This document shows, piece after piece, positions 2,808-63,963 of a stretch of 64,000 nt of DNA. Each line of letters opens with the position of its first letter. Within the stretch, counting starts at the first letter, position 1. The notes beneath the pieces were generated by a model. The model was not told where the DNA came from. It did not search any database and saw nothing but the letters and a program-made list of their open reading frames with translations. The position numbers were made by a program, and so were the translations under genes. The stretch lies in the sequence record MH791411.1. The stretch is one strand, 5' to 3'. The DNA comes from Escherichia phage Ecwhy_1.

Positions 2808-3587
2808 ATGTTTACATATGTAAAAGGTAGTTCTAAAGAAAATTATGAATTGGGTAACATCATCTCCAACCCAGTTGGTGTTAAGGGTTTAAAAGAACGC
2901 CCTGGGGCAACTCCAGATGATGAACAAACATATCGTTATTTGTACAGTGATATCCGTGCACTTTATGGTATTTCAAGTAAAGATGGTTCTGAAATTGAAC
3001 CTAATAACGCTGTTCGCAAAGAAGAGGGTTTCTGGTGGTTGGAATATAAGAATGTTGGTAATGTGAACGCAATTAATGAGAATTTGGAATATATTAAACT
3101 ACAAGATAGTAATCAACCAGTCATCACATTCTTAGAAGAAGCAGAAGGTGAATATAAAGAGTTAACAGTACTGAAAACTTATAATTATGTTGATATGGAC
3201 ATTGCAGCAGTTAAATCTGATCTGAAAGCACGCACAGTATCATCTCGTAGTGATCGTATTAATGCTGGTTATATGTTTAACGGTCATCGTTATAGTACTG
3301 ATCTAGCTGGTCGTCAAATGCTTCTTAATTATTATACACAAGTAACTTCCGGTTCTGATAGCGTTTCGATTTTCCTTGATGACGCAATTGTAAAACTATC
3401 TGCTGCTGAAATGACTCAACTATACACTGAAGCATTTGCTATGGTTGAATCCCTATTTGCAGAGTGTAATAAGCAATGTGCTGACATTGATGCAGTTCCT
3501 GATGCTGATGAAGATGCAATTTATAAAGCACAACAGGCGGCTGTATGGGTATATGAAGGTATTGATATTCCTGAGCGTATTCGTTAA
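2808..3587 (+). CDS. hypothetical protein, possibly a fibre accessory/assembly protein
   Basis: 259-aa ORF with gaggt RBS upstream of the ATG, sitting between two fibre genes; no motif I can name with certainty. Confidence 0.5.
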   Translation: MFTYVKGSSKENYELGNIISNPVGVKGLKERPGATPDDEQTYRYLYSDIRALYGISSKDGSEIEPNNAVRKEEGFWWLEYKNVGNVNAINENLEYIKLQDSNQPVITFLEEAEGEYKELTVLKTYNYVDMDIAAVKSDLKARTVSSRSDRINAGYMFNGHRYSTDLAGRQMLLNYYTQVTSGSDSVSIFLDDAIVKLSAAEMTQLYTEAFAMVESLFAECNKQCADIDAVPDADEDAIYKAQQAAVWVYEGIDIPERIR

Positions 3588-3593
3588 TTTATA

Positions 3594-3632
3594 TTTTTTT
3601 AAAGGTCAACTATGGTTGGCCTTTTCTTTTAT
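3594..3632 (+). terminator. rho-independent terminator
   Basis: Stem aaaggtcaac/gttggccttt (one mismatch) at 3601-3624 followed by a T-rich tract tcttttatc. Confidence 0.55.
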
Positions 3633-3678
3633 CTAAAATAAATACTTAATATATAATCTATTCTGAGGAAATATTTAA

Positions 3679-47967: not shown

Positions 47968-48555
47968 TTACCAGCCTAATGTACCAGTTTGTGTTGGATT
48001 TCCAGTACTGACTGGGAAAGATGAACCTTTTTGTGTTGTACTTGGTCTGTATGTATTGAATCGTGATACGCGTTCAATGTTGATAGCAGTAATACCAGAA
48101 GTTCCAACGGTAATAGTCCCGATGAACATTATAATCTGTGATTCTTGTAATTGTGAAGTTGAGATTCTATAAATTGGCTCTCCCAGTACTAAAGTAGCGT
48201 ATACATATTGTGTTTGTGTGCCTGATGCCACTGTTGGTGCTGTCACTGCAACAACAGGGTAATTATAAAGATAGCCACCGATGAATGCAGGTATCTCTCG
48301 GTTAAAACGTAATGAATAACCGCTTGATGTAATTGACAAACTAGATACATCATAAAGTTCACCATATTGTGATAATGGTAAACCGTTAACAATAGAATCA
48401 ACTTCATCTTTTGTTAAGAGGGGGAATGTACATTCCCCATTTGCGTCTGTTCGATACGATACGTCATTAATATCACTAATAGATAGTCCAGTGTTTTTAT
48501 TCTGGACTACGATTTGTGACATAGCTTCGATATCGGATCTTATAATATATGCCAT
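47968..48555 (-). CDS. short fibre-family protein (N- and C-terminal modules only)
   Basis: 195 aa; LPLSQYGELY at the N-terminus and FNTYRPSTTQKGSSFPVSTGNPTQTGTLGW at the C-terminus match the two long fibre genes; no central domain. Confidence 0.6.
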   Translation of the reverse strand: MAYIIRSDIEAMSQIVVQNKNTGLSISDINDVSYRTDANGECTFPLLTKDEVDSIVNGLPLSQYGELYDVSSLSITSSGYSLRFNREIPAFIGGYLYNYPVVAVTAPTVASGTQTQYVYATLVLGEPIYRISTSQLQESQIIMFIGTITVGTSGITAINIERVSRFNTYRPSTTQKGSSFPVSTGNPTQTGTLGW

Positions 48556-48567
48556 AAGATTAATCCT

Positions 48568-51264
48568 TTACCAATTGATTGTTCCTGTTTGTGACGGTAG
48601 ACCATAACTAACTGGGAATGAAGAACCAGCAGCTTCAAGAGACGCACCGAAAATATCCAATCTTGAACGTTTTTGTATGTTAACATTTGATATTTGTAGT
48701 GAGTTTGTTTGTATAGTACCTATCCAGAAAATATTATATGCTGTAGAACCAGTTTCTGAAATAACATCAGTTGTTATTACATATTTTGCATTACCTTGTT
48801 CCATTTTAACATATACATGAAATAATGTGTTTGCTGGATTAGCCTTAACTGTAGTTAAGTTTATACTAGTAATCGGTAATGTAAATGCTTTACCAGAAAG
48901 AATTACTGGAGTTTCTTCTGTGAAGTACACAATAAAACCTTGAGCAACGTCTTGTGAAACTACGTTAATCGGTGCACCTTGAGCAGTCCAGTTATTATAA
49001 TCAGCAATTGTAGTACCACATTTTTGGAAAGTCATTTTGTTTACATAGTCTATTGCTTGGAAATAACCAAAACCAATACCAGGTAAAGCTGCTGGTTGAA
49101 TACCTTGCTCATAACTTGCATGTGAACCACTGATAATAAAACTATCAAATTGTGCAGTTGCTTTTGTTACATATGCTCTGAATTGGTGTGTGTTTGTATT
49201 ACCAATAGTTGGGTGAGATAATGGGTCAGAACCACCTATGAAGTAGAAAGAACCACCATCATATATTGTTAAACCAACAGAAGACGAAGCAAAACTACCA
49301 TTACCATTTGGTGTAAAGTTACTTCCGTAAACGTTTTCTAGTACTAAACGCTTGAAGGTAATTGTAGTGATATTACCTGAACGTGTATTCACATTCACTT
49401 CAGCAATTCTAATATAGTTCTGATATGTATTTGTAACTGTACTTAGCATTACGAATGCAGGTATATCAGTTTGTTGTGGAACAAACAATGTCATATCTTT
49501 ATAAGCAGCGGAAGATAAGTTCCAGTCGCTTAGTACTTTGGCGTATTCAGCATTTCTGAAATTATCAAGTACAGATTGAGTAACACTAATGATACCAGTT
49601 CCGTTCATATTTTTATCATATGATAGTGATTGGGAATATCTCTGACCTACCATGAATATCCCACCATTTGTAGTAACATTATTACCACTAATGGAACTAA
49701 TAAAAACTCTGTTGTTCGTGTTATCTGTCACATTAGCACGTTCTGTTGTTGGCTCATAACCTTGTATGGTTCCACGTGATAAAGAATTAAACGTAAAGTT
49801 AGGAGTACTTTTATGAACTGCATAAGATGGACGGAATGCACCAGAACCAGTTGAACGAGAATACTGTTTAGTACTGTTCCCTGGAAGCAATTCTACGCCG
49901 TTAATAAAAGAACCAACTGCTGAACCAAATGAAGGACGAACTATGCCATTTCTGAAATCAGTTGAAATGTTCGCACGTACATTAATCATGCTATATATTG
50001 ATTGTGCAGTAAATTTAGCTTTCTGCATAAGCAATGGTTCTGCTAAGTTTGGACATGCAGTACAGAATACTTCACCTGTATTCAGATAATAATATGAACT
50101 GTAAATGTTTCTTGCACCGCTATGGTCATATAAAGGATCTTTGTTGAGAACGTTACCAGTAGCAACCAATGCCGAACCTGTGTTTGTAACAACAAATGGT
50201 GCAGCAAATGTACCAATATCGTTCCCATTATCCAAGTTACATTGTTTAGTACTCATGTTAAAATTGAAACTATAACTATGCTGTGGTCGGGTATTGTAGT
50301 TTGCCATAGTGAACCATGCGTCACCATTCATTCTGAATCGGAAGTTCTGCGTTCCTGGCTCCTGAGCAACATATAAATCGATAGATGTCATATAAATCCC
50401 CATACCAGCCAAATTTTGTGGTACATAGACATATGGCTTATCAGCAATATTAGTTGAGTTAACATGGTCAGTAATGATTATATTATTCTGAGCAGTATAT
50501 GTAGTATTGTAAAAAGTTTTTGTTGTCCATCCCGTGATTCGGGTAGCAGTATAAGTACCGTTTGCAATATTCAATACAACACGAACAACAACAATCTGTA
50601 GTTTGTTATTTTCATTAAGGACGTTGAATACATAAACTGAACCGTCTTCTGCCATCATAGCATACTCAATCCCACCTTCAGGTGAAATATCAGCTTGGTT
50701 CACAAAAAGACCACTATGTTGTGTATCATCCAATGTACCATTCGTTACTGATATAAACAACCCATTAGTATTGGTAGATGTGTCATTGTAACGACCTAAT
50801 AGTATTTTTGAATCAGTATTGTATAAACCAATAGCAACACGGTTTGCCCCAAAATAGCCAGGCTTATACTGACGGCTTGTATTAACAGTACGGCTCATAT
50901 CGGTAACGGATAATGCGTTCGCTAGGTAAGAATAAAATAAACCTTCAACACTACCGTTTGTACCACTACGTAATAGTACTAATGTGCCATCGTTTTCTAA
51001 AAGTATTTTGTTTCTACGTTGGGATTGGTTTTCTGATGCACCATTAAAATCACCAGATACCCCAGCAGGTAGATAGTTATGTGTACCATAATGCGAGATT
51101 GGAAGTAAACTAATTACATCAAGTAATTCTTCTTTGGAATATGTATCAATTTCCATATTACCATTAGCATCAAATACTTGATCATTGATGCCCTGTACTG
51201 TTCTTTTCCCTTTAACTGTCACATTATGAGTGACGTCTAAGCCACCATATATTTTCTTTGACAT
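48568..51264 (-). CDS. tail fibre / receptor-binding protein, paralogue 2
   Basis: 898 aa; N-terminal LLPISHYGTHNYLP, C-terminal module ending GTINW; AAGGA RBS. Confidence 0.7.
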   Translation of the reverse strand: MSKKIYGGLDVTHNVTVKGKRTVQGINDQVFDANGNMEIDTYSKEELLDVISLLPISHYGTHNYLPAGVSGDFNGASENQSQRRNKILLENDGTLVLLRSGTNGSVEGLFYSYLANALSVTDMSRTVNTSRQYKPGYFGANRVAIGLYNTDSKILLGRYNDTSTNTNGLFISVTNGTLDDTQHSGLFVNQADISPEGGIEYAMMAEDGSVYVFNVLNENNKLQIVVVRVVLNIANGTYTATRITGWTTKTFYNTTYTAQNNIIITDHVNSTNIADKPYVYVPQNLAGMGIYMTSIDLYVAQEPGTQNFRFRMNGDAWFTMANYNTRPQHSYSFNFNMSTKQCNLDNGNDIGTFAAPFVVTNTGSALVATGNVLNKDPLYDHSGARNIYSSYYYLNTGEVFCTACPNLAEPLLMQKAKFTAQSIYSMINVRANISTDFRNGIVRPSFGSAVGSFINGVELLPGNSTKQYSRSTGSGAFRPSYAVHKSTPNFTFNSLSRGTIQGYEPTTERANVTDNTNNRVFISSISGNNVTTNGGIFMVGQRYSQSLSYDKNMNGTGIISVTQSVLDNFRNAEYAKVLSDWNLSSAAYKDMTLFVPQQTDIPAFVMLSTVTNTYQNYIRIAEVNVNTRSGNITTITFKRLVLENVYGSNFTPNGNGSFASSSVGLTIYDGGSFYFIGGSDPLSHPTIGNTNTHQFRAYVTKATAQFDSFIISGSHASYEQGIQPAALPGIGFGYFQAIDYVNKMTFQKCGTTIADYNNWTAQGAPINVVSQDVAQGFIVYFTEETPVILSGKAFTLPITSINLTTVKANPANTLFHVYVKMEQGNAKYVITTDVISETGSTAYNIFWIGTIQTNSLQISNVNIQKRSRLDIFGASLEAAGSSFPVSYGLPSQTGTINW

Positions 51265-51309
51265 ACATATCCTTGTAATTTAGATATTAGTTACTGTATT
51301 TATGAATGT

Positions 51310-51334
51310 AATAAAAAAGCACCCATTGGGTGCT
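51310..51334 (-). terminator. rho-independent terminator after nrdG
   Basis: Hairpin agcaccc-att-gggtgct (51318-51334); on the minus strand followed by ttttttatt. Confidence 0.65.
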
Positions 51335-51339
51335 TGTGT

Positions 51340-51810
51340 TTAAAAGTCTTTATTTTTATATAAAATTCGTTGGTTATTTGAACCACGAAATGGTAATGTT
51401 AAATTCTTTTCTTCTGAAACAAATTTACCATCAACTAATACATCTAAGTACTGAAGAATGTCTTTAGCATGATTATTCATAATCTCTTCTAAAGTATATC
51501 CACTCCAGCACCAAATAGTTTTATTGGGATAAGTCTCTTTTACAATCTTACATAGTTCTAAAATTGTTTCTATGTTCTTTTTCATTAGAGGATCTCCACC
51601 AAGGAGGGATAATCCACTAACGTAAGGCTTACTGAGTTCAGCTAAAATTATATCAATTGTATCAGTACTGAACTCTTGTCCACTTCTATAATCCCATGCT
51701 TCTTCATTGAAGCATCCGTCACACCCATGACTGCACCCACTAACAAAAAGGGAGCATCTTACTCCCTCCCCATTAATAAGGTCGTCTTTAATTATCGTCT
51801 GGTAATTCAT
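51340..51810 (-). CDS. nrdG: anaerobic ribonucleotide reductase activating protein (radical SAM)
   Basis: 156 aa; Cx3Cx2C radical-SAM motif in SGCSHGCDGC near the N-terminus; downstream of nrdD. Confidence 0.85.
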   Translation of the reverse strand: MNYQTIIKDDLINGEGVRCSLFVSGCSHGCDGCFNEEAWDYRSGQEFSTDTIDIILAELSKPYVSGLSLLGGDPLMKKNIETILELCKIVKETYPNKTIWCWSGYTLEEIMNNHAKDILQYLDVLVDGKFVSEEKNLTLPFRGSNNQRILYKNKDF

Positions 51811-52114
51811 CTAATATTGCACTCACTATCTCAACGAGAACATCACCATGACATGATTTCGGTTTACAGAAACAGCCAAGACGTTTCCCTGCTAACTCAA
51901 GTAAATCATCAATCTGAACTTCACCGTTAGAAATACGCTCAATAATGTATTCTCTGAACTTTTCGATTGATTCTTCCCTTGTAGCAACAATGAACTCGGC
52001 TTTGGTCTGTTTATCACTGATATGGGTAAATGGGTTGCCCCATTTAGACCCACGACCGATATACACATCATACGGTTCTTTATATTTGTTAACCACAATT
52101 GGCTTTAAATCCAT
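51788..52114 (-). CDS. small conserved protein (DUF4326-like?) between nrdD and nrdG
   Basis: 108 aa; GRGSKWGNPF and a C-terminal CFCKPKSCHGD cluster; my recollection is that this matches the DUF4326 family. Confidence 0.45.
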   Translation of the reverse strand: MDLKPIVVNKYKEPYDVYIGRGSKWGNPFTHISDKQTKAEFIVATREESIEKFREYIIERISNGEVQIDDLLELAGKRLGCFCKPKSCHGDVLVEIVSAILDELPDDN

Positions 52115-52122
52115 AATGTACC

Positions 52123-53928
52123 TTATTTGTGTTGTATACGCTCACAACATTCTTGTTGTTTGCCTTTGTTGAATCCACGAGACGATGGGTTCCCCAAATA
52201 TCCAGAAACACGACGAATCACTGAGATTGTCTTCTCATTGCGATTATCACATACTGGACAATGAAAACCGTGTTTATCTACACTGAACTCACCTTTATAC
52301 CCACACTCGTAACACTGGTCAATTGGCTGGTTGATGCCAAAATATGGAATCTTTGTGTAAGCGTAATTGACTAAAGTCTCAAGTGCTTGAATATTGTTAC
52401 TTAGGTTGGGTGATTCCACATAACTGATGTTTCCTCCATTACTGAGGTAAGCAAAGCCCTCTTCGTAGCTCCACTTATCAAATGCAGAACTTTCTACCCA
52501 TACTGGTTGATGGAAGGAATTTGTGATGTAATCACGTTTTAGTACTGAAGGGTATTTAGATTCGATGCAACGTGCAAATTTGTAGCAAAGTGACTCTGCT
52601 GGGGTTCCATATAGACTAAAAGCTATATTACTCTCTTTTTTGAACTCATCGCATTTTACTTTCATATAATTCAGTACTGACATACAGAACTCCTTACTGA
52701 TAGAACCAGTCAGAATTTCTGAACATTCAACTAAACCAACGTAACCAATACTAATACTAGCATATCCGTTATAAAATAGCTTGTCAATCGTTTCTTCTGC
52801 CCCTAAACGTGAAAGTGCACCTTCCATGAACAAAATCGGATTCTGCTTCGCTTTTGTGCCTTTTAAACGCTCTACGCGGTTCATCTGAGCACGATATGCA
52901 ATATTCATATGCTCGTCTATTTTATCAAAAAACTCTCCATCTGAGGCACTTTCAAGAGCAATTAGAGGTAAATTGATAGAAACCACGCCTAAGTTGAAAC
53001 GACCGTTATATTGCTCATTTCCATTGGAATCTTCCCATTTTCCTAAAAATGAACGACAACCCATAGGAGTTACTGCTGTACTGCTACTTCCTGTAACTTT
53101 GTGATTTAACGGCACAGAAACGAAGTCTGGGTAGATTCTCTTCGATGCACAACGCATTGCCAACTGTTTCATGTCATAGTTGCAATCATCGCTATTCATG
53201 TTGATTCCGTCCTGTAAAAAGAAAATTACTTTAGGAAACACAGGAGTGATCTTATCTTTACCTAAACCATTCTCATGTACTTTTAAGTACTGTTCAGTGA
53301 TTAATTTACCAAATTTTGAAGTATTCAGTCCTAAACTAAGAGAAATGAATGCTGCTTGACCATTTGTACTAATCATTGAATTTGTCTGGTAAAGTAAGGT
53401 TTGACACCCATCATAGACTTCTTTTCGTAATTCTTCCTCAATGTATTCAGTACTGAGATTATATGCCTTTTGCTTCGCTAATAGCTTATCCCACGACTTT
53501 TGGACGTAAGGTTCAAGACCAACGTCGATATGAGCCAACGATTGACCACCGTACTGGGAACTAGCAACAGCTTGTACAATTTGTGTCAGTACTGTACATG
53601 CTACACTAAAACTCTTTGGTTCTTCAATTTTGGCACAACCAATGGTAAATCCATTTTTTAGCATATCTGGGTAGTTAACTAAGCAACAGTTAGTTAATGG
53701 GCTGATATAGTAGTCTAAATCATGAATATGACCATAACCATCATTATGCCACTGCATTAGCTCCTTTGGAATAACATCTTGTGAATAATGCTTAGATAGG
53801 ATACCAGCAAGTAAATCCCTGTGTGTATTGACGCATTTCGCATCTTTGTTTGCATTTTCATTTGTAAGATCAGTATTGCTCTGATTTAGGAAATTTGTTA
53901 CGTCAGTATATAATTTATCTAATTGCAT
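52123..53928 (-). CDS. nrdD: anaerobic ribonucleoside-triphosphate reductase (class III RNR)
   Basis: NENANKD ... RDLLAGILSKH near the N-terminus; C-terminal zinc ribbon (CYECG ... CPVCDN) and glycyl-radical loop RRVSGYLGNP. Track start 53955 has no RBS; the ATG at 53928 has AAGGAAAG and gives a T4-like N-terminal length. No intron. Confidence 0.9.
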   Translation of the reverse strand: MQLDKLYTDVTNFLNQSNTDLTNENANKDAKCVNTHRDLLAGILSKHYSQDVIPKELMQWHNDGYGHIHDLDYYISPLTNCCLVNYPDMLKNGFTIGCAKIEEPKSFSVACTVLTQIVQAVASSQYGGQSLAHIDVGLEPYVQKSWDKLLAKQKAYNLSTEYIEEELRKEVYDGCQTLLYQTNSMISTNGQAAFISLSLGLNTSKFGKLITEQYLKVHENGLGKDKITPVFPKVIFFLQDGINMNSDDCNYDMKQLAMRCASKRIYPDFVSVPLNHKVTGSSSTAVTPMGCRSFLGKWEDSNGNEQYNGRFNLGVVSINLPLIALESASDGEFFDKIDEHMNIAYRAQMNRVERLKGTKAKQNPILFMEGALSRLGAEETIDKLFYNGYASISIGYVGLVECSEILTGSISKEFCMSVLNYMKVKCDEFKKESNIAFSLYGTPAESLCYKFARCIESKYPSVLKRDYITNSFHQPVWVESSAFDKWSYEEGFAYLSNGGNISYVESPNLSNNIQALETLVNYAYTKIPYFGINQPIDQCYECGYKGEFSVDKHGFHCPVCDNRNEKTISVIRRVSGYLGNPSSRGFNKGKQQECCERIQHK

Positions 53929-54063
53929 TTTACTTTCCTTGTATTTTGAAATCATCTGGGGGTGAAGTTATTTAACATCACCAGACACCATTATAGCGTC
54001 AGAACAGGGTATTTCTCTTGACCTATATCAAGGAAAGGTCACATTGCTTTATATTTGTACAAA

Positions 54064-54087
54064 TAGAAAAAGCACCACTAGGGTGCT
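54064..54087 (-). terminator. hairpin with short U-run (weak terminator) upstream of nrdD
   Basis: Hairpin agcacc-actag-ggtgct (54071-54087); on the minus strand followed by tttttct. Confidence 0.45.
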
Positions 54088-54204
54088 TTAAAGTACTGCT
54101 AATATAAAAACTGCCCAAATTAGCAGTACTACATTGGTTGGAGCGGCAAAAAACATATATGCAGCAATTGCACTGCATCCGATTACAAGTTTAGCTAGTC
54201 TCAT
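54088..54204 (-). CDS. 38-aa hydrophobic micro-protein (single TM helix)
   Basis: Not in the ORF track (under 60 aa). ATG at 54204 with GGAG RBS; translation MRLAKLVIGCSAIAAYMFFAAPTNVVLLIWAVFILAVL; stop abuts the hairpin. Confidence 0.35.
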   Translation of the reverse strand: MRLAKLVIGCSAIAAYMFFAAPTNVVLLIWAVFILAVL

Positions 54205-55408: not shown

Positions 55409-55646
55409 ATACTAAATTGGAAAAGTGTTCAGTACTGGAATATTTTGCTAAATCTGTTATATGGAAGTAGACATCTTTGAAATTATCATTCTCAAATGTC
55501 GTTATTTGTAAACAGTGTGTGGGTCTGAAAATATAATAATAAAATATATCATCTTCAGCCACAACTGTATGGTTTTTGTAGCGTTCAATTTTTTTCATGT
55601 GTGAATAATTTCTTTTACCCCATATTCCATAATTGCCAACGTACAA
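55377..55646 (-). CDS. hypothetical small protein
   Basis: 89-aa ORF overlapping both neighbours; uncertain. Confidence 0.3.
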   Translation of the reverse strand: MYVGNYGIWGKRNYSHMKKIERYKNHTVVAEDDIFYYYIFRPTHCLQITTFENDNFKDVYFHITDLAKYSSTEHFSNLVFVYCIPNHNM

Positions 55647-55963
55647 ATCTCACAAGGCTTGGCAGGGACTGGAATACCATCTTTACTTACCCGTGCAATC
55701 AACAAAGTATGAACTTCAGCACGAGAAGCCAGCAAACATGAGATTTCAGCATGAAGAAATTCACCTTGTGGACGACCAGCACGGATTGCAAAACCTTTCT
55801 GTACTGGGTGAGTATGTGTGTAAGAATTAGTACGTGTTGCCAATACACGACCTTTCTTATCAAGTGCACGAGCAATCACACGATAACGTTTGTAGCTCCC
55901 CACTTGCTCGATTGGTGGCATCCGTCGCAATTCTTCAATTAGTTTCTCAAGTTTACGATTCAT
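55595..55963 (-). CDS. zinc-dependent cytidine/deoxycytidylate-type deaminase domain protein
   Basis: 122 aa; the deaminase zinc-ligand pair HAE (FLHAEISCLL) and PCxxC (AKPCEICTL) at typical spacing; shorter than classical dCMP deaminases. Confidence 0.5.
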   Translation of the reverse strand: MNRKLEKLIEELRRMPPIEQVGSYKRYRVIARALDKKGRVLATRTNSYTHTHPVQKGFAIRAGRPQGEFLHAEISCLLASRAEVHTLLIARVSKDGIPVPAKPCEICTLAIMEYGVKEIIHT

Positions 55964-56586
55964 AAGTCTAAGTCTATACCCTTTTCAAATGATTTCTCTA
56001 GAACCCAAAGTTTACATTCTTCACTCTCCAAATGCATCTTTGCCTCTTTCTGTTGTTCTATTGTACAAGACTTTATAAATTCACGCAAGGCTTCTATTGT
56101 ACTTTTTATATTTTTTATGTCTTCCAGAATTGTTTCTTTGGCTTCAGCATCAATTACAGATGAACTCCACCCGTGACGTTCTTCCCAAATTGTTTTTGTT
56201 GAATTGTAAATTGATGATGTAGAAATGACTGCATGGACCTTATTAAACGTATCGTCTGCTTCTTGTTGGGTGTAATCACCATAAGTGTTTAGCACATTTT
56301 TGTATAGTTCATCAATTGCCTCATCATAAGTATCACCACCGCAATCTAACTCATAATCATGTGCTTGTACCCATTCATCATCTTGCTCAACGTACATAGG
56401 TGAGATGAATTCTACCCAAAATTGTGTCTTTGTATTCAGAGCTTTAAATGATTCAATGCGGTTTGTGATTGGACACACATCATGTGGTTCGATATCAATC
56501 CTTGGGGGAACCATATCTCCGTTGATGAATTTAGGATGGCCCATAATCCACCAGTACTTTTCAGATGTAGTCATTGTAATCTCCAA
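55960..56586 (-). CDS. hypothetical acidic protein
   Basis: 208-aa ORF. Confidence 0.45.
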   Translation of the reverse strand: MEITMTTSEKYWWIMGHPKFINGDMVPPRIDIEPHDVCPITNRIESFKALNTKTQFWVEFISPMYVEQDDEWVQAHDYELDCGGDTYDEAIDELYKNVLNTYGDYTQQEADDTFNKVHAVISTSSIYNSTKTIWEERHGWSSSVIDAEAKETILEDIKNIKSTIEALREFIKSCTIEQQKEAKMHLESEECKLWVLEKSFEKGIDLDL

Positions 56587-56619
56587 ATAAAAAGTACTGC
56601 CACTATAACAGTACTGATA

Positions 56620-56979
56620 TTAAATGTAACGTTTCTTTTTATAATCATACCCTACTTCTTTGTAAAAGTCAAACAAAGAAGCATGGGTAAACGTAGGTAA
56701 CAGATCATATGGGTGCTGATAGTTCGCAATACCAACAACTGCCAGCATTGATTCAGCCGTTCTGGAATTTTCACTATCCCATTCATCTAAACGCCACAGT
56801 GAACAAAGAACTTCACGTTCGTGTTGCTTACCAAGAAAGAATTCAGCTTCACGGTCACGAAATGCACCTACGCTGATAGTACTTTTGTACCAGTCTTTCT
56901 CACCATAAGCTGGCATACGGATAATGTGTTTTTCTTGAGCTTCACCAAAGCGATGAAGAAATGCCACATAATCACTCAT
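56620..56979 (-). CDS. hypothetical protein
   Basis: 119-aa ORF; ATG overlaps the stop of the upstream micro-ORF. Confidence 0.45.
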   Translation of the reverse strand: MSDYVAFLHRFGEAQEKHIIRMPAYGEKDWYKSTISVGAFRDREAEFFLGKQHEREVLCSLWRLDEWDSENSRTAESMLAVVGIANYQHPYDLLPTFTHASLFDFYKEVGYDYKKKRYI

Positions 56980-57146
56980 AACTTATAACCCATTACTGGT
57001 TTTGAATAATCAGGTTCATAAAACTTTTCAGTACTGAACCCTCTGAAATTACCACGACCTGGCTTCGGACAAGCCATCCCTTCTACACCGTGCTTACCCT
57101 GAACCTTTCCGCAGTTTTTGCATTTGTATCCAATAACTTCTTTCAT
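56976..57146 (-). CDS. 56-aa zinc-ribbon-like micro-protein
   Basis: Not in the ORF track. ATG at 57146 overlaps the upstream stop (ATGA), and its TGA overlaps the downstream ATG; translation MKEVIGYKCKNCGKVQGKHGVEGMACPKPGRG... contains CxxC plus a further Cys. Confidence 0.45.
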   Translation of the reverse strand: MKEVIGYKCKNCGKVQGKHGVEGMACPKPGRGNFRGFSTEKFYEPDYSKPVMGYKL

Positions 57147-57391
57147 TGTGCATCCTTTGGAATAGTGTTAAGGCGTGTACGGTTTACAATCTTCCTGCAC
57201 ATGAGATTAAGATCTTGCCCATGACGCATCTCATGGCAAGCATACAATGTACCATCATAGTTAAGTTTAGTCAAATTCTGGCGAATGAACTCTGCATCAG
57301 CCTCCTGAACTTTAGGTGCACAGCCACAGAGAGTAATGGACACAAATATTGTTAATGTAATGAATATATTTTTCATGATATTTTTTCTCAT
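57143..57391 (-). CDS. putative small lipoprotein
   Basis: 82 aa; N-terminal hydrophobic signal ending ITLCGC (lipobox-like). Confidence 0.4.
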   Translation of the reverse strand: MRKNIMKNIFITLTIFVSITLCGCAPKVQEADAEFIRQNLTKLNYDGTLYACHEMRHGQDLNLMCRKIVNRTRLNTIPKDAQ

Positions 57392-58359
57392 TTTGGGCTA
57401 TAACCACTTTTAATTTTAGAAATTACTTTCTTCTCGAAGAACTTACGTGCTTCTTCAATAGTTTTGAATTCTTCACCATCTGTAGTACTGGTTTTACCAA
57501 TAGCACCATACTCAATAATTACTTCACACACTGGAGCATTCAATTCAATATTATAGAATTTGTTCGAAGAACCGTGAACATATTCCAAATGTACATTATC
57601 AGGAATGTTCTGCACATAATCATAGTTCTTGAAGATAATATCAATCATATTTTCTTCACCGCGATCAGGAAATAGTTCAGTATTATTCAGTACTAAACGC
57701 TGTGCAGCACGGAACATATCAAAATATTGTTCACCTTTTTTCAGTTCTTTTGTATCAGAACAGAAATGACCATAGTATTCTACATAATCATTCCAAGGAT
57801 AAATTCCTTCATCAGCAGTTTCAAAAGCGTAAGTTTCATCTTGTGGAACTTTAAAACCACGAGTTTTTGGATGAGAAATTAAGCACAGTGAAATATTATG
57901 ACCGATATCTGAATCATCAGTAATACTACCACCAACCATATGAACAACATTTTTAATACGTTCAAAATCTACATCTTCAATTTCATGATACATTAAATGT
58001 TCTTCAATATTACTTACTAGTAATGAATTACCATTTCCTGCATCGAATTCAAAAATGAAAAGTTCTACACAATCTTCTTCTTTCATTTCAATAGTATCAC
58101 TGAGTTTAATATACTCATTTTTTACTTGTTCAATATTTTCATGAGAACCAAAACTATAACGAGAACTGATATAACTACTACCATCCAACCATCCCATATC
58201 CCAAGGTTCTTCTGACATGTATTCGGTGCTATAGAAATCAGTCAAATCATCTCTCTGAGTACAAACCGTAAGAGAACGAACATTATTAAGACCTTGAACT
58301 TCAAGATTCAGTACTGTAGTGTTGCCGATTTTTTGTTCAGAAATAATTTTAGTTTTCAT
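57388..58359 (-). CDS. hypothetical protein with C-terminal WGR-like domain
   Basis: 323 aa; C-terminal ~80 aa (SSNKFYNIELNAPVCEVIIEYGAIGKTSTTDGEEFKTIEEARKFFEKKVISKIKSGY) follows the WGR pattern, with YGAIG in place of WGRIG. Confidence 0.45.
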   Translation of the reverse strand: MKTKIISEQKIGNTTVLNLEVQGLNNVRSLTVCTQRDDLTDFYSTEYMSEEPWDMGWLDGSSYISSRYSFGSHENIEQVKNEYIKLSDTIEMKEEDCVELFIFEFDAGNGNSLLVSNIEEHLMYHEIEDVDFERIKNVVHMVGGSITDDSDIGHNISLCLISHPKTRGFKVPQDETYAFETADEGIYPWNDYVEYYGHFCSDTKELKKGEQYFDMFRAAQRLVLNNTELFPDRGEENMIDIIFKNYDYVQNIPDNVHLEYVHGSSNKFYNIELNAPVCEVIIEYGAIGKTSTTDGEEFKTIEEARKFFEKKVISKIKSGYSPK

Positions 58360-58368
58360 TTAAAATAC

Positions 58369-58473
58369 CTATTGAAATGATTTACGCCATTTGACTAGTT
58401 TAACATTCATGTAAGTAAGGAACTCACGTTCCATCTCTTCTGGACTCATATTATCGCATTGCAAAGCGAACAT
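58369..58473 (-). pseudogene. truncated duplicate of the 3' end of gene 58491..59138
   Basis: Nucleotides 58381-58480 are recognisably similar to 58505-58600; the 34-codon ORF (MFALQCDNMSPEEMEREFLTYMNVKLVKWRKSFQ) parallels the C-terminus of the upstream gene (...NSDEVEREFITRVQIALHKSKK). Confidence 0.4.
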
Positions 58474-58490
58474 GTCAAGTGCACATCATC

Positions 58491-59138
58491 CTACTTTTTT
58501 GATTTATGTAATGCAATTTGTACTCGCGTAATGAACTCACGCTCTACTTCATCTGAATTAACACCATCATATTGTGTTTTGAATAGTTCCATAGCTTTGA
58601 TAGCCATCTGAACTGAAAGATCAGCAATACTTTCAGTACTGGTACTTTCAAATACATTTTTGAGGCTTAGTTCACCATCATCAATACATTCTTTTGGTTT
58701 GTTGATTTCTGGTACTTGGATGTATCGCAATGCTTTGTATTCTGCTTTGGTCAGATTCCCAGTCCATCTTGGTTCATTGAACAAGTCATGCATTGTAATG
58801 CCAGCTTCACCCATTAGGTGTACTAACTCTTCATTTCGGCGAATATGCTTTTCTTCATCTTTGAAATTTTTGTAAGTGTAAGCACAACGCATGATAGCCA
58901 AACGTACTTCACCACTTTTAGTAATTGTATACGTATGAATTGCATTATCGTAGTCACTTTCCCATTGTTGACCCGCATATTCGTACCAAAGGTCATTTGT
59001 CTCCCAACGGAGCATTTTACCTTCTAGTAGCTCGTCAATCATTTTAGCCATGTTACCATGATATTCACAACTGGTAATATTAAATCCACCATTGTACTTT
59101 GCAAGGTACAGAATCTTTTCTTGTGATACATTTTTCAT
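58491..59138 (-). CDS. hypothetical protein
   Basis: 215-aa ORF with ATG start. Confidence 0.5.
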   Translation of the reverse strand: MKNVSQEKILYLAKYNGGFNITSCEYHGNMAKMIDELLEGKMLRWETNDLWYEYAGQQWESDYDNAIHTYTITKSGEVRLAIMRCAYTYKNFKDEEKHIRRNEELVHLMGEAGITMHDLFNEPRWTGNLTKAEYKALRYIQVPEINKPKECIDDGELSLKNVFESTSTESIADLSVQMAIKAMELFKTQYDGVNSDEVEREFITRVQIALHKSKK

Positions 59139-59476
59139 TACATGTAATCCTTGATGTATTTTAGCAGTTTAGATTTCTCTTCGGTACTTAATGATTTCTT
59201 GTTCATCAAGTGTTTCATTTCTTGACGTTCAATTTCTTCACATCTTTTAGATTCAGCTTCAATTCGTGTATGGTATTCTTCGTCAGTTTCTTCTCTGGTC
59301 CAAATTACATTGTATCCATCGAAACCACCGTAACCACCGTCTGGTGAAAGACTAATGTATCCCTTGTACTCTGAACGGTACTTATTAAGAGTGTCAATAA
59401 AGGTATCAATGCCACACTGTTCAATTTCAATATAACCAATCACGACAGCAACTTCAATTTTGTTCATAAAGTTCAC
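59138..59476 (-). CDS. hypothetical protein
   Basis: 112-aa ORF. Confidence 0.45.
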   Translation of the reverse strand: MNFMNKIEVAVVIGYIEIEQCGIDTFIDTLNKYRSEYKGYISLSPDGGYGGFDGYNVIWTREETDEEYHTRIEAESKRCEEIERQEMKHLMNKKSLSTEEKSKLLKYIKDYM

Positions 59477-59494
59477 CTATAAAAATAGGGAGCA

Positions 59495-60052
59495 TTAGCT
59501 CCCTTTGTATTGATGTTTACGTTTAGTACTGTATTTCCAGCCAGTACTGTGTCTTGTTCTGATATCATCCCAATACGATGGTAGTGAACGCATCTTACGT
59601 CTTCCACGTATATCCGGTTCCCCCTCATCCTTCAGTACTGCACAAGCCATACGACGCTCTTGTTGGGTCTTAGGACGTTTGTATCTGGAGTGGTTATGTT
59701 TGTACATATACGAACGCTTGTGTCGCCATTCAGTGTCACGAGCATTTCGTTTATGATCCCAGTACTCATTATAGAGTATCATGTATTCACCCATAAGTAA
59801 ATCAGGAGATACAAGTAATCCTTTTTCAGTACAAAGATAATAACCTACGAACTTTTCTGGATACATTTCGTAATAGAAACGGTTCTTCCAAAATGTTTCA
59901 CGATTCTTTTTGTTGAATTCAGCTAAATCGAATTTCATCTTACTGTGGAAACGGTCTATACCGTCATGTTCCGCAATGTACTCTAACAGATTATCAATAA
60001 TCTCAACTTTACCTGAATCATGGTACAACGTAAATGTTTGGTCAAAAAACAT
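59495..60052 (-). CDS. hypothetical protein with basic C-terminal tail
   Basis: 185-aa ORF; Arg/Lys/His-rich C-terminal third. Confidence 0.45.
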   Translation of the reverse strand: MFFDQTFTLYHDSGKVEIIDNLLEYIAEHDGIDRFHSKMKFDLAEFNKKNRETFWKNRFYYEMYPEKFVGYYLCTEKGLLVSPDLLMGEYMILYNEYWDHKRNARDTEWRHKRSYMYKHNHSRYKRPKTQQERRMACAVLKDEGEPDIRGRRKMRSLPSYWDDIRTRHSTGWKYSTKRKHQYKGS

Positions 60053-60140
60053 ATATTTCTCCTTTAAGTTAAACTAACCTAATGGAATGTCATTCTTCCT
60101 TTACTACATGTTCTCATGGTTTAATCCTTTTGTCAATATC

Positions 60141-60173
60141 TAGAAAGAAAAAATCCCTGCCAAAAGACAGGGA
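60141..60173 (-). terminator. rho-independent terminator
   Basis: Hairpin atccctg-ccaaaaga-cagggat (60152-60173); on the minus strand followed by ttttttctttct. Confidence 0.6.
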
Positions 60174-60268
60174 TGAAAAACTGAAATAACACATGGAGTT
60201 CTTTTTAAATTAATAAAAAGTATTATTATTCTTATGAAAGTATTTATCATGAACTCCAGTTTATTGCT

Positions 60269-60466
60269 TCAAATGCCCCAATAACCTTTTTGTGCTACTA
60301 TCTCACGGTATTGAGCACGAGTTAGAACACCTTGTTTACGTAGAGCTTGAAGACCTGATAGGGTTTCTGCTTTACGTAGTTCGTAATTGCGTTGTTCTTT
60401 AGATTGAATAACTTTAACTTTCTTAACTTTTGCTACTGGTTCTTTTTTCTTAGGTTGCTTTGCCAT
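60269..60466 (-). CDS. small basic protein (possible nucleic-acid-binding)
   Basis: 65 aa; Lys-rich N-terminus; AAGGAG RBS. Confidence 0.5.
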   Translation of the reverse strand: MAKQPKKKEPVAKVKKVKVIQSKEQRNYELRKAETLSGLQALRKQGVLTRAQYREIVAQKGYWGI

Positions 60467-60532
60467 GAGTATTTCTCCTTTGTTGTTAACAATATTATTA
60501 TATCATGTATGGGACGAATGTCCCATACATTA

Positions 60533-61972
60533 TTACATATTTTCTTCAGCAAATTCTGCCAGTGGTGAACGAACGACACCTTCTAGTTCGATTACACGAC
60601 AACCGTCCCAGTTCTTGAACTTCTCGGTAACATAAGTTAGACCGCTGTTAACTGGACTAATGAATTTAGAGTCAATCTGGCTCAAGTTGCCCATAATAAC
60701 CACTTTACAGTTCATTCCTGCACGAGTCAGGATTGTTTTAGCCTGAGCAGGAGTAATGTTCTGGAATTCATCCACTACTAGGATAGTGTTTGTGAAAGAA
60801 CGCCCACGAACGAAGTTTAGTGCTTTGAACTGGATAACATTACGTTTCATGATTTCTTCGATACTGCCTTGTGGGTTAGCATCATCTTTGTGTAGGAATT
60901 CCAACGCATCAATGGCAGCTCCACAGAATGGAATCACCTTCTCTGCCTCAGAACCTGGCAAGAAACCAATGTCTTCGAATTGGGAATCTTGTGTTTTGGA
61001 GAAGATGATACGGTCGTATTTTTTCTTCTCTAGTACTAGCTCCAGTGCAGTAGCAATGGTGATCAATGTTTTACCAGTACCTGCGGAACCCAACAGTACT
61101 GTTAGATGAACATCAGGATCTAGGATACTGTTGATTGCTAGTGCTTGTTGAATATTCTTAGCCTTAATATCCCACACTTTAGCACGTAGAGCAACAGATT
61201 GTCCAATATCTTGGAATACAAGAATATCTTCTGGTGTTAAAGTACCATCATCTTCTTCAATTGCAGATTGGCCTTCGTACACAAATAGAACATCAGCATT
61301 ATCATATAGGTAATCACCGATGCAAATATTTTGTGGCATGATATGTTCAATCAAGCTTTTTGGAATGTAGTGATACAAACGGCGACCAACTTGTTCAGAT
61401 TGGATAGACACATCAGTTAGATTGCTATACACATCCCAAAAATCTAGGTCGAGGTGATGTTGACCAATGTGAATCAAATCACTATCACCAATCACGATAT
61501 CATGACGATAATCTTGAACTTCCACCCCGTAGCTTAGAGCCTTGATACGCATATTGATATCACGGGTAACCAGTACTGAATCAGTTGCTAATGCTACTAA
61601 AATGATTTTATCATCTGGTACTGTGCTTTTTAGAAGAGTTTGAACTTTCTCTTCGTTACCAGAAGTACGAATTAGTGCTTCAGCTTCTTCGCTTGTAATA
61701 ACAAACAATTTGCTTTCAGGACTCATATTAGTATGAACATCAGCAATATTAACACCAGTACTACTAATTTCTTCATGTGATGCATCAGAAAGGATAGCTT
61801 CAATGTTACGGATTGCAACACGAGCATCACGGGAAACATCCACATTACGACTTTTGATTGAATCCAATTCTTCAAGTACTGTGAACGGTAGAATGATAGC
61901 TGCTCCATCAAAAGCAATGGTAGCATTTGGATCAGATAGTAGTACGTTTGTGTCAATTGTATATTTTTTCAT
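60533..61972 (-). CDS. phoH: PhoH-like ATPase with N-terminal PIN-like domain
   Basis: 479 aa; N-terminal DTNVLL PIN-like start; C-terminal Walker A GSAGTGKT and Walker B VVDEFQN. Confidence 0.85.
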   Translation of the reverse strand: MKKYTIDTNVLLSDPNATIAFDGAAIILPFTVLEELDSIKSRNVDVSRDARVAIRNIEAILSDASHEEISSTGVNIADVHTNMSPESKLFVITSEEAEALIRTSGNEEKVQTLLKSTVPDDKIILVALATDSVLVTRDINMRIKALSYGVEVQDYRHDIVIGDSDLIHIGQHHLDLDFWDVYSNLTDVSIQSEQVGRRLYHYIPKSLIEHIMPQNICIGDYLYDNADVLFVYEGQSAIEEDDGTLTPEDILVFQDIGQSVALRAKVWDIKAKNIQQALAINSILDPDVHLTVLLGSAGTGKTLITIATALELVLEKKKYDRIIFSKTQDSQFEDIGFLPGSEAEKVIPFCGAAIDALEFLHKDDANPQGSIEEIMKRNVIQFKALNFVRGRSFTNTILVVDEFQNITPAQAKTILTRAGMNCKVVIMGNLSQIDSKFISPVNSGLTYVTEKFKNWDGCRVIELEGVVRSPLAEFAEENM

Positions 61973-62033
61973 AAAACATCCTTGAGTTATGAGTACATCC
62001 TTGTACTCGACTAATGGTTAGTGACTCGGAATA

Positions 62034-62336
62034 TTACATGCTCGGTTCGTATTCAACATAACATCTTGAACCACGAGCCTTTTCCTCCCAGCATTCCTGG
62101 TAAACTAGTTGACCAATTGATACTGGATCTCTTGATAACCCATTACGAACTTCACCAGTACTGGTTTTATAAGTAAATGAGCATTTATTTTCATTACATT
62201 GACCTAATCCTGTTACAGTCGCTGTATTGTAATGAATATTATAACGTTTAGTGTTCTCATGATATGAACTGAACCACAGAACACCTATACCTAATAGCGT
62301 TGTGCAAATAAGACTCTTGATATGTGTTGAAATCAT
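62034..62336 (-). CDS. hypothetical secreted/membrane-anchored small protein
   Basis: 100 aa; N-terminal hydrophobic segment LICTTLLGIGVLWF; several Cys. Confidence 0.45.
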   Translation of the reverse strand: MISTHIKSLICTTLLGIGVLWFSSYHENTKRYNIHYNTATVTGLGQCNENKCSFTYKTSTGEVRNGLSRDPVSIGQLVYQECWEEKARGSRCYVEYEPSM

Positions 62337-62653
62337 AGTGCATTAAATCCATTAGTTAAGTAAGTTTCAATATTAACTTTCCCTACTGGATTACTACTAT
62401 GTACATAGTATTTAAATGGTTCTTTAATATTATGCTCAAACATATAATCAATTAGAAATTTGGCAAAAGTGTATCCAGTTTTCTCATCTGTACTCAAGTC
62501 ACCCAAGTCATGGTCAAATGAGACAAATGCTGGAATTCCATTTTTGATTACGTATTCACATGCACTTTCGTAGTCACGACACAATACCATCTCTTGGTCA
62601 GGATAATATTTTTGATAATCACGAATATCATCCAAGAACATTGAGTACGACAT
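62333..62653 (-). CDS. hypothetical protein (receiver-like fold?)
   Basis: 106 aa; conserved-looking FLDDIR, FDHDLG and HSSNPVG motifs; family not confidently recognised. Confidence 0.45.
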   Translation of the reverse strand: MSYSMFLDDIRDYQKYYPDQEMVLCRDYESACEYVIKNGIPAFVSFDHDLGDLSTDEKTGYTFAKFLIDYMFEHNIKEPFKYYVHSSNPVGKVNIETYLTNGFNAL

Positions 62654-62662
62654 TTTAAACTC

Positions 62663-63214
62663 CTATAGATAGCTGATTAGTAAGTTTTCTTTTTGTACAA
62701 GATACTCTAATTCTTGTTTCGCAGTTCCGATGAAGTTCTGTGTCATAAGATTATTATATCCTGCTTCTCGATTTTGTCCCTTCGAATAACGAGAGATGTG
62801 ACATAAATTTACACCAGCCACCTCTGCACTAGCATGTTTGCCATATGCATAATTATCACGAAGTTTTTTAAGTTCAGCATAAGTCATTTCATAACTATAG
62901 CTATGTGAGTGACCCTCTGGAAACAATTCAAGTGATTTTAATGGAGACAGGCGACTTTTGTCAATGATATAGTTCATTTCTTCTTGTACTTCACGTTGTA
63001 ACGCATCTTCTAATGACTTATCAGTACTTTCAACTGTTCCACCACATGCACCCAACAATCCATCCCAACGCACTTGTAGGAGTACTAAGTTAACCACTGG
63101 AATATCATTTAGTTCATAACCAGAGTATGGGGTACATTCTTTTGCATAAAAGAAACAGAATACAAAATTTGCACGTTTCCCCAGTTGTCCCAGTGGTACT
63201 TCAGCTTTACTCAT
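62663..63214 (-). CDS. Nudix-like hydrolase (divergent Nudix box)
   Basis: 183 aa; GGTVESTDKSLEDALQREVQEEMNY approximates the Nudix box (REVQEE core) with altered spacing; ATG overlaps the Sir2-like stop (ATGA). Confidence 0.5.
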   Translation of the reverse strand: MSKAEVPLGQLGKRANFVFCFFYAKECTPYSGYELNDIPVVNLVLLQVRWDGLLGACGGTVESTDKSLEDALQREVQEEMNYIIDKSRLSPLKSLELFPEGHSHSYSYEMTYAELKKLRDNYAYGKHASAEVAGVNLCHISRYSKGQNREAGYNNLMTQNFIGTAKQELEYLVQKENLLISYL

Positions 63215-63963
63215 CGCATTCGTTCCTTAATTATAGTTTCAACCTGTGGAATTGCTTTCGTCGCAGGTTTGATGACCTTCTCATTAAAAAGAAAATCATT
63301 ATCATTTTTTCGGATGTTAACATTTACACTATAGCATGGAAGTGCACCAGCTAGTCTGGACCATACCAGTACTGTATCACTACTTCCAATAACTACAACT
63401 GTATCATTTTCTGTGAGACTTTTCAACACTTCATTTCGTTCTTCATAAATGGGGAGACGTACCCCATCAACGTAGCGATGATACTCACCAATCATCACTA
63501 CATTTGGTTTTGCAAAAACATCAGCTTTAGGGATATATGGTTCATAACCACAATTAATGACATTGTAATCATCAGTATTAATAGAAAAGTTCTCAATTAC
63601 TTCACATAAATTGCCGTGTAGTTTGAGTTCGGTTCCACCAATTCTAGTATATAGATCATCCATATTAGAAGTCATGTGTAAAAAACAATCACCATACAAA
63701 TCTTCTAATGATTTAATAAAGTAATGCATTTCATTAGGATGACATTCACCTAATTTTACACGCAATGTATTATAAAATGAATGAACTATATGATACTTAG
63801 AACTAAGTCGTGCAATGTTACAAACATCATTAATTTTGAAATTGTCCCACAACCCATCATCAAAGCGGAATGGTTCCATCCCGCTCTCAACTGAAAGACC
63901 TGCCCCTGAAATTATAAGTAATCTTTTGTTCCCAGCATTTTGTATAAATTTATCTGATATCAC
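63211..63963 (-). CDS. Sir2-family (sirtuin-like) NAD+-dependent protein
   Basis: 250 aa; ISGAGLSVESGMEPFR, TSNMDDLY, LHG and VVVIGSSDTV match sirtuin NAD-binding motifs; no CxxC zinc ribbon seen; GTG start at 63963 preceded by AAGGAG. Confidence 0.65.
   Translation of the reverse strand: MISDKFIQNAGNKRLLIISGAGLSVESGMEPFRFDDGLWDNFKINDVCNIARLSSKYHIVHSFYNTLRVKLGECHPNEMHYFIKSLEDLYGDCFLHMTSNMDDLYTRIGGTELKLHGNLCEVIENFSINTDDYNVINCGYEPYIPKADVFAKPNVVMIGEYHRYVDGVRLPIYEERNEVLKSLTENDTVVVIGSSDTVLVWSRLAGALPCYSVNVNIRKNDNDFLFNEKVIKPATKAIPQVETIIKERMR

Follow-up and report, generated by a model that had tools for sequence, protein, structure and literature searches.

Gene content and layout of the nrdD-nrdG locus

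The locus lies in a window of 64,000 nucleotides, the whole stretch of DNA that was analysed, which corresponds to an E. coli jumbo phage of the Asteriusvirus type (PBECO4/121Q). Escherichia phage fEgEco12, whose record already names the gene under study 'DUF4326 domain-containing protein', matches the region at 99.9% identity, and about 34 further 350-kb jumbo phages of E. coli and Salmonella do so at 88–99%. The original prediction had pointed out a 108-aa open reading frame that follows nrdD, overlaps the start of nrdG and carries two conspicuous motifs, and this layout was confirmed by the reading frame itself, by the positions of both motifs and by Pfam matches of the flanking genes (Table 1). 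The encoded protein has a mass of 12.3 kDa, a pI of 5.0 and exactly three cysteines.

Table 1. Features of the nrdD-DUF4326-nrdG unit, in coordinates of the window
Feature	Position	Strand	Properties and basis
Terminator-like hairpin, end of the unit	51317..51335	-	8 pairs followed by a T-run, 5 nt 3′ of the nrdG stop
nrdG, radical-SAM activase, last gene of the unit	51340..51810	-	156 aa; Fer4_12 E 2.9e-53 and Radical_SAM
Overlap of DUF4326 (3′ end) and nrdG (5′ end)	51788..51810	-	23 nt, different frames; ORF positions
DUF4326 / T4 NrdA.1-type gene	51788..52114	-	ATG start, 108 aa; ORF, PF14216 at 86 bits, phrog_464 E 1.4e-42
Motif 2, CFCKPKSCHGD (C81-D91)	51842..51874	-	residues 81-91, at the junction of predicted strand 78-81 and helix 89-103
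Motif 1, GRGSKWGNPF (G20-F29)	52028..52057	-	residues 20-29
nrdD stop TAA and 8-nt spacer before the DUF4326 ATG	52115..52125	-	sequence reading
nrdD, anaerobic class III ribonucleotide reductase, first gene of the unit	52123..53955	-	610 aa; PF13597 E 4.6e-167 and Gly_radical
Terminator-like hairpin upstream of nrdD, closing the preceding unit	54069..54089	-	

The three genes look like a single, translationally coupled transcription unit, because terminator-like hairpins were found at its outer ends only and none inside it, because the spacer between nrdD and the DUF4326 gene is short and accompanied by a Shine-Dalgarno-like site (TAAGGT, spanning the nrdD stop and placed 6–8 nt 5′ of the DUF4326 ATG), and because the DUF4326 gene in turn runs into nrdG. 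Comparison with the ortholog of phage 121Q yielded a dN of 0.036 and a dS of 0.50 for the DUF4326 gene, that is a dN/dS of about 0.07, comparable to the value of about 0.06 for nrdG. The DUF4326 gene is thus under purifying selection.

The leftward block that precedes nrdD contains genes for a SIR2-family protein (63211..63963), a Nudt16-like NUDIX protein (62663..63214), a PIN-PhoH protein (60533..61972), a WGR-domain protein (57388..58359) and a dCMP-deaminase-like protein (55595..55963). This gene content fits a nucleotide and NAD-metabolism neighbourhood, which is no proof of a role of the DUF4326 protein in it.

Family assignment and naming

DUF4326 had been suggested as a family to search, and the HMM search bore this guess out: the protein matches PF14216 (DUF4326) with 86 bits at a cut-off of 25 bits (E 2.9e-24, profile positions 4–82 of 82). 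It likewise falls into phrog_464, the family of T4 NrdA.1. A chance open reading frame is ruled out by these two matches, by more than 3000 homologous clusters at 90% identity in a word-indexed search and by the low dN/dS, all of which also uphold the earlier statement that the gene is conserved. T4 NrdA.1 shares 43% identity with the window protein, family members find each other in phmmer with E 5.5e-20, and the RaK2 ortholog is called 'nrdA.1' in its authors' annotation. Judged by these sequence matches, the window ORF encodes a homolog of phage T4 NrdA.1.

The family is large. An exhaustive HMM search returned 17,824 clusters at 50% identity (E ≤ 1e-3), and tblastn located the family in 2168 of 50,697 phage records, T4 included. 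The window gene is an ordinary member of an already known and annotated family and represents no new kind of system. The label 'ribonucleotide reductase NrdA-like', which is attached to phrog_24867 and to many GenBank records, was considered and rejected, since there is no similarity to NrdA; it is a carry-over of the positional T4 gene name nrdA.1 and does not denote homology. The literature searched contains computational predictions only and no experimental function for any DUF4326 member, in agreement with the original prediction, which knew of no established function.

Conserved residues and predicted fold

Conservation was counted over 149 diverse representatives that are mutually less than 50% identical. 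C81, C83, C88 and H89 are each present in 149/149 of them, followed by R21 (148/149), N27 (146/149), G26 (145/149), P85 and G90 (144/149 each), R46 and K77 (129/149 each), D16 (128/149) and D91 (127/149). The spacing C-x-C-x4-C-H is kept in 135/149 representatives, while the loop is one residue longer (x5) in 5/149. This core does not vary across 14 phage lineages that share 33–53% identity, and the window protein possesses all of the family-wide residues R21, N27, C81, C83, C88, H89 and G90.

An AlphaFold2 model computed from a 30-sequence alignment reached a pLDDT of 91.7 and a pTM of 0.84. It predicts short strands at residues 6–9, 17–18, 29–30, 41–42 and 78–81 and helices at residues 46–62, 68–72 and 89–103. 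Because the last of these strands ends and the last helix begins within it, the cysteine motif C81-H89 would reach from the end of the strand through a loop into the helix, of which it includes the first turn.

No solved structure was found by sequence, a profile search of the PDB sequences giving E-values of about 1 or worse, or by fold, the best match of the model in a Foldseek search of the PDB having an E-value of 2.4 and a TM score below 0.32; rhodanese, PTP and RapZ were absent among the 30 Foldseek PDB matches. Among the predicted viral structures of BFVD, significant named matches were mostly DUF4326, many of them within longer multidomain proteins. Further labels were DUF2493 (a SLOG relative), 'NADAR domain with protein tyrosine phosphatase', 'transposase' and 'alpha-L-fucosidase', and a weak match to a DUF488 protein appeared at E 0.19. 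Thioredoxin and glutaredoxin gave no Pfam match even at E ≤ 10, the protein has no CxxC motif, and the order of its secondary-structure elements differs from theirs.

The nrdD-nrdG interval in related jumbo phages

Within Asteriusvirus, NrdD at 80% identity or more and the DUF4326 protein at 90% identity or more were each found in 35 records, and the DUF4326 gene lies between nrdD and nrdG in all 35 as well as in RaK2-type phages. We compared this interval with that of sister jumbo phages whose NrdD is 71–73% identical to the NrdD of the window. RaK2 carries a gene for a 120-aa stand-alone glycyl-radical protein of the T4 vs.6 type, followed by DUF4326; 7t3 carries the glycyl-radical gene only; GAP32 has two and XbC2 three unrelated ORFs; and Serratia BF has five ORFs, the glycyl-radical gene among them. 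An HMM search of the nrdD-nrdG loci of 7t3, GAP32, XbC2 and Serratia BF revealed no DUF4326 even at E ≤ 10, and at a threshold of 60% identity the genomes of 7t3, GAP32 and BF yielded no copy elsewhere either. The original prediction had named absence of the ORF from close relatives with an intact nrdDG as the result that would refute its proposal of a redox or metal-handling accessory, and these four phages present this picture.

In the sister jumbo phages, the space between nrdD and nrdG serves as a slot for variable cargo, and the window gene is very probably an independent DUF4326/NrdA.1-type gene that occupies it. Because this is a cargo site, little can be read from where the gene lies. 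Outside the Asterius/Alcyoneusvirus group, the closest homolog is a 71%-identical protein on a 349-kb metagenomic contig of a related jumbo phage, where its gene adjoins a Thg1-like gene and lies near a gene for an RlaP-type nucleotidyltransferase. A relative in Xanthomonas phage XaC1, 80% identical to this homolog, is encoded two genes downstream of a Thg1-like gene.

Neighbourhoods of the family in other phages

We examined 80 IMG/VR loci with the closest homologs. NrdD or NrdG was encoded within 6 kb in only two of them, both of the RaK2/121Q type, none of the remaining 78 had a gene for NrdD, NrdG or NrdA within this distance, and NrdA was found in 0/80. The co-occurrence with nrdDG that had been proposed as a check was thus not seen within 6 kb in 78 viral loci, and the accessory role that had been deduced from position is not supported, the family residing mostly away from ribonucleotide reductase (RNR) genes. 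The 109 non-redundant immediate neighbours did not include a recurrent partner, DNA methylase being the commonest with four occurrences. Within 3 kb, the neighbours were clamp loader and 5′-3′ exonuclease (10 loci each), DNA methylase (8), T4-type RNA ligase 1 (7), YfbR-like nucleotidase and 2OG-Fe oxygenase (6 each), a cyclic-phosphate REC domain (5) and dCMP deaminase (4).

Individual phages give the same impression of heterogeneous replication, recombination and nucleotide-metabolism modules. The gene adjoins SbcCD-like exonuclease genes in Kuttervirus, stands in the order primase, exonuclease, DUF4326, dCMP deaminase, helicase in Rhizobium phage TM40 and in the order DNA polymerase, DUF4326, endonuclease, helicase in Klebsiella YMC16, and is close to a polynucleotide kinase gene in Erwinia vEam_S_24 and to an exonuclease gene in PaMx11. 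It is found amid early hypothetical genes in KVP40, tuntematon and the N4-like PGN829.1, and next to a cytosine methyltransferase gene in the 35-kb Actinomyces phage xhp1, the genome of which has no annotated RNR.

Apart from the jumbo phages, proximity to an RNR gene is seen in Straboviridae, where T4, Jiaodavirus and Acj9 keep the arrangement td / nrdA.1 / nrdA and the family member overlaps the start of nrdA; exceptions are PX29, in which denA and rnlA follow, and KVP40. Adjacency to RNR genes is thus seen in two vertically inherited synteny blocks that concern two mechanistically different RNR classes. Two RNR-adjacent lineages among about 100 independent contexts come close to chance placement in early nucleotide-metabolism regions, by a rough estimate of our own that takes 2–3% of gene positions to touch an RNR gene and is not a computed statistic.

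Cellular fusions and published predictions

In cellular genomes, DUF4326 is repeatedly joined to SLOG and NADAR domains. A trio of genes for DuOB (dual-OB), DUF488 and mSLOG-DUF4326, in which DUF488 stands directly upstream of mSLOG-DUF4326, recurs in eleven gammaproteobacterial chromosomes. DUF4326 proteins of 1101–1103 aa are encoded in MAG genomes of Vicinamibacterales (L174 and L182) and Acidobacteria (L178), and the one of these three that was scanned, L174, consists of NADAR (DarT1-type), three SLOG domains and DUF4326. A fusion of DUF4326 with YpsA-SLOG occurs in Evansella (Bacillales) and one of DUF5131 with DUF4326 in a Terriglobia genome. The fusion partners cleave or bind N-glycosidic linkages of nucleotides or ADP-ribose, so that a ribose-phosphate-type substrate is the most economical guess for DUF4326.

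Profile comparison gave mixed results on a possible relationship to DUF488. PF22751 ('Active DUF488-N3 subclade', DUF488-N3a) gave sub-threshold, colinear matches in 17 of 30 family members (best E 2.9e-4), which cover the C-terminal strand-loop-helix of DUF4326, while two hhalign runs against an alignment of YeaO-type DUF488 proteins returned no signal; the YeaO homologs were all at least 70% identical, and both profiles were of low diversity. Burroughs and Aravind reportedly put DUF4326 into the rhodanese-phosphatase superfamily in 2023, in a clade of RapZ-C, DUF488 and DUF4326. We treat this assignment as predicted, on the strength of the weak matches and of this proposal.

Computational predictions for DUF4326 have been published (PMC9503650, PMC7824862). 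The survey of jumbo phages by the Aravind group (Viruses 2021) regards DUF4326 as an enigmatic domain that is probably enzymatic, and a 2025 preprint describes giant-virus homologs of the LOG-like anti-Avs protein ORF83 that carry a C-terminal DUF4326.

Proposed function and rival explanations

The reading that we tentatively prefer, at slightly below an even chance, is that of a stand-alone Cys/His-dependent phosphoesterase or phosphotransferase acting on a ribose-linked phosphate, as predicted by Burroughs, Iyer and Aravind. The DUF4326 gene is very probably cargo of the variable intergenic slot and no dedicated part of the reductase. It appears to be co-transcribed and translationally coupled with nrdD and nrdG, so that its product would be made while the phage builds dNTPs. 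The predicted active site would lie where the strand meets the helix, with R21, N27 and R46 joining the C81-x-C83-x4-C88-H89 loop. Candidate substrates would be a phosphate on the ribose of a nucleotide, on an ADP-ribose breakdown product or at an RNA or DNA end, and the role during replication may be housekeeping of the nucleotide pool or of nucleic acids, or counter-defence. Inferred in this reading are the type of catalysis, the substrate and the identity of the nucleophile, which would be C83 or C81. Of the redox or metal-handling function proposed earlier, the part that needs no reductase is retained: with three cysteines and one histidine invariant, the DUF4326 protein itself may perform cysteine-based chemistry or bind metal. 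Against this reading stand the searches of the PDB by sequence and by fold, which found no relative, the lack of an hhalign signal to the shallow YeaO-type DUF488 alignment, and two further points. The invariant Cys3-His set equally matches the look of a structural zinc site, and the extra loop residue in 5/149 representatives would be poorly tolerated by a strict P-loop.

Both points lead to the main rival, a non-catalytic zinc protein, in which C81, C83, C88 and H89 would hold a structural Zn2+ and a small domain with a basic patch would bind nucleic acid or protein, perhaps regulating replication or nucleotide metabolism or acting there as an adaptor. The strict presence of all four ligand-type residues, the lack of any further cysteine in the protein, the slight variation in loop length, the failure of Foldseek to match any solved enzyme fold in the PDB and the lack of the cysteines in YeaO-type DUF488 relatives are consistent with such a site. 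However, a Cys88 and a His89 that directly adjoin each other at the N-terminus of a helix are an unusual pair of ligands, and the near-invariant polar residues D16, R21, S23, N27, R46, K77 and D91 suggest a substrate pocket. The repeated fusions to enzymes for nucleotide or ADP-ribose N-glycosidic bonds also speak against this rival. Zinc-finger families gave no Pfam match to the window protein, Zn-ribbon-like matches being confined to N-terminal extensions of two homologs. Taken together, we consider a purely structural zinc protein unlikely. The invariant cysteines could also serve a disulfide relay of C83, C88 and C81 that reduces a small oxyanion or a modified nucleotide, in the manner of the ArsC-type Cys-cascade reductases. 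The C-x4-C spacing beside a basic residue resembles that of LMW-PTP-type arsenate reductases, and thioredoxin-like genes are nearby according to the fEgEco12 annotation, but neither the sequence nor the structure searches linked the protein to ArsC or LMW-PTP, and the SLOG/NADAR fusion partners point to ribose-phosphate products rather than oxyanions, which makes such a reductase very unlikely.

The reading that takes position most literally is an accessory of NrdD and NrdG, or of NrdA in T4, which would act as a reductant or thiol relay, as an Fe-S or metal chaperone for NrdG or as a modulator of the reductase. In its favour are the translational coupling to nrdD and nrdG, which the 35 Asteriusvirus records and the RaK2-type phages have in common, another family member that overlaps the start of nrdA in T4, Jiaodavirus and Acj9, and three invariant cysteines that are compatible with redox chemistry. 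On the other side, 7t3, GAP32, XbC2 and BF keep nrdDG with a slot devoid of DUF4326, a close homolog adjoins a Thg1-like gene in a related jumbo phage, the 78 other viral loci have no RNR gene within 6 kb and the 109 neighbours no recurrent partner, and phage xhp1 has the family with no annotated RNR. Moreover, T4 NrdD and NrdG are active in vitro without NrdA.1. The two RNR classes concerned differ wholly in the chemistry of radical generation, the protein has neither a thioredoxin/glutaredoxin signature nor a CxxC motif, and the frequency of adjacent lineages is, by our rough estimate, about that of chance. We therefore regard a dedicated accessory as scarcely probable. Nevertheless, the tight coupling to an RNR gene in T4-like phages and in Asterius/Alcyoneusvirus leaves room for an RNR-related role. 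DUF4326 might have been recruited twice into RNR operons, of class Ia (nrdA) and class III (nrdD/nrdG), as a nucleotide-pool enzyme that works alongside dNTP synthesis, perhaps by stripping a ribose-linked phosphate from an aberrant or defence-made nucleotide or from an ADP-ribose derivative that is toxic to RNR or to replication. We rate this extension as a long shot; if true, T4 nrdA.1 would be the first tractable model of a new counter-defence or pool-sanitising activity present in about 4% of sequenced phages.

DUF4326 is among the larger unknowns in phage biology, being very widespread, possessing an absolutely conserved Cys3-His centre and being fused repeatedly to SLOG and NADAR domains.

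Comparison with known systems

In RaK2, 7t3 and Serratia BF, the same place between nrdD and nrdG is taken by stand-alone glycyl-radical proteins of the vs.6 / GrcA (YfiD) type; no gene of this type was found within the window. These proteins belong to PF01228 and are unrelated to DUF4326, and the evident link to glycyl-radical enzymes is theirs, whereas none is apparent for DUF4326.

DUF488 (E. coli YeaO; PF04343/PF22751) resembles DUF4326 in its length of about 100–120 aa and in a C-terminal strand-loop-His-helix element, and DUF488 and the C-terminal domain of RapZ are said to have been described as sister groups of DUF4326 by Burroughs and Aravind in 2023. In contrast to DUF4326, YeaO-type DUF488 proteins lack the three cysteines, and neither hhalign nor Foldseek gave a significant match between the two. 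The P-loop of LMW-PTP and ArsC, C-x4-C-R-S/T, is paralleled by C83-x4-C88-H89, in that a strand ends in a cysteine, after which come a short loop with a second cysteine and then a basic residue at the N-terminus of a helix. In DUF4326, however, histidine replaces the arginine, an extra cysteine is present two residues upstream, and similarity to LMW-PTP and ArsC is not detectable; we would thus speak of a resemblance rather than of membership.

The closest known counterpart is T4 NrdA.1, which agrees with the window protein in family, in size, in R21 and N27 and in the C-x-C-x4-C-H motif. It has HRGTFWGNYV in place of GRGSKWGNPF and lacks a 10-residue insert at residues 33–42. In T4, the gene lies in front of nrdA of the aerobic class Ia (in the order td, nrdA.2, nrdA.1, nrdA), whereas the window gene is placed between the class III genes nrdD and nrdG; both appear to be translationally coupled to an RNR gene in a nucleotide-metabolism cluster.

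DUF4326 proteins with repeated domains and in cellular genomes

Among the representatives of the DUF4326 family to which the gene between nrdD and nrdG belongs, some carry tandem domain repeats with two to four separate DUF4326 stretches per polypeptide (P0251, 352 aa; P0243, P0264, P0269, P0270 and P0275). Many GenBank and PHROG annotations label phage DUF4326 proteins as 'ribonucleotide reductase NrdA-like' or 'ribonucleoside-diphosphate reductase subunit'; we rejected an NrdA-like reductase as their identity, since these labels are spurious and derive from the naming of the T4 gene nrdA.1.

In cellular genomes, a chromosomal gene trio encoding a DuOB (dual OB) protein, a DUF488 protein and a 201-aa mSLOG-DUF4326 fusion is conserved among Gammaproteobacteria (loci L166, L168-L172, L175, L179, L180, L183 and L184, at about 3570-5234 in each), and this trio likely constitutes a nucleic-acid or nucleotide-processing system. 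Much longer DUF4326 proteins of 1101-1103 aa are encoded in three MAGs, two of them from Vicinamibacterales (L174, 3189-6497; L182, 3195-6497) and one from Acidobacteria (L178, 3195-6500). A domain scan, performed on the L174 protein only, revealed a DarT1-associated NADAR domain, three YAcAr-SLOG repeats and DUF4326. Through this fusion the family is connected with the reversal of DNA ADP-ribosylation.

Genes flanking the nrdD-nrdG operon

The minus-strand block upstream of nrdD (window 55595..63963) is an NAD/nucleotide-metabolism cluster.

Genes of the block upstream of nrdD
Feature	Window coordinates	Strand
SIR2	63211..63963	minus
Nudt16-like NUDIX	62663..63214	minus
PIN-PhoH	60533..61972	minus
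323-aa protein, WGR domain at C-terminus	57388..58359	minus
dCMP-deaminase-like protein	55595..55963	minus

Directly past the nrdG terminator lie an 898-aa and a 195-aa ORF (window 47968..51264, minus strand), whose sequences are tail-fibre-like, rich in Asn/Thr/Ser, and share the C-terminal ending '...GSSFPVS.G.P.QTGT..W'; a structural gene block therefore adjoins the metabolic operon.

Divergence and variable cargo of the nrdD-nrdG region

Compared with phage 121Q (window 51343..52114 versus L002 6001-6772), the DUF4326 gene has a dS of 0.50, much below the 1.37 of the neighbouring nrdG; the difference could be sampling noise, the gene being short, or could mark a recombination boundary. The 3.2-kb window region 51000..54200 aligns as 2-5 pieces across 4.4-5.9 kb in some Asteriusvirus genomes (vB_Ec-M-J, TH47 and CMSTMSU), and NrdD is split into three parts in the CMSTMSU annotation. 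These split alignments and annotations suggest that insertions such as introns or homing elements interrupt nrdD in these relatives, or that the gene contains frameshifts.

Comparison of the intervals separating nrdD and nrdG in RaK2-like jumbo phages (window 51811..52122 versus L087 4310-5523, L088 4316-4686, L089 4346-6219, L090 4310-5076 and L186 4319-5914) reveals that their cargo varies, making this interval a variable slot. GAP32 and XbC2 fill it with unrelated ORFs, one of which weakly matches a TRM5/TYW2 methyltransferase. No vs.6-like gene was found in the window phage within the 64 kb. The slot of RaK2, 7t3 and Serratia BF encodes a stand-alone glycyl-radical protein of 120 aa (PF01228), which resembles the 'spare part' T4 vs.6/GrcA.
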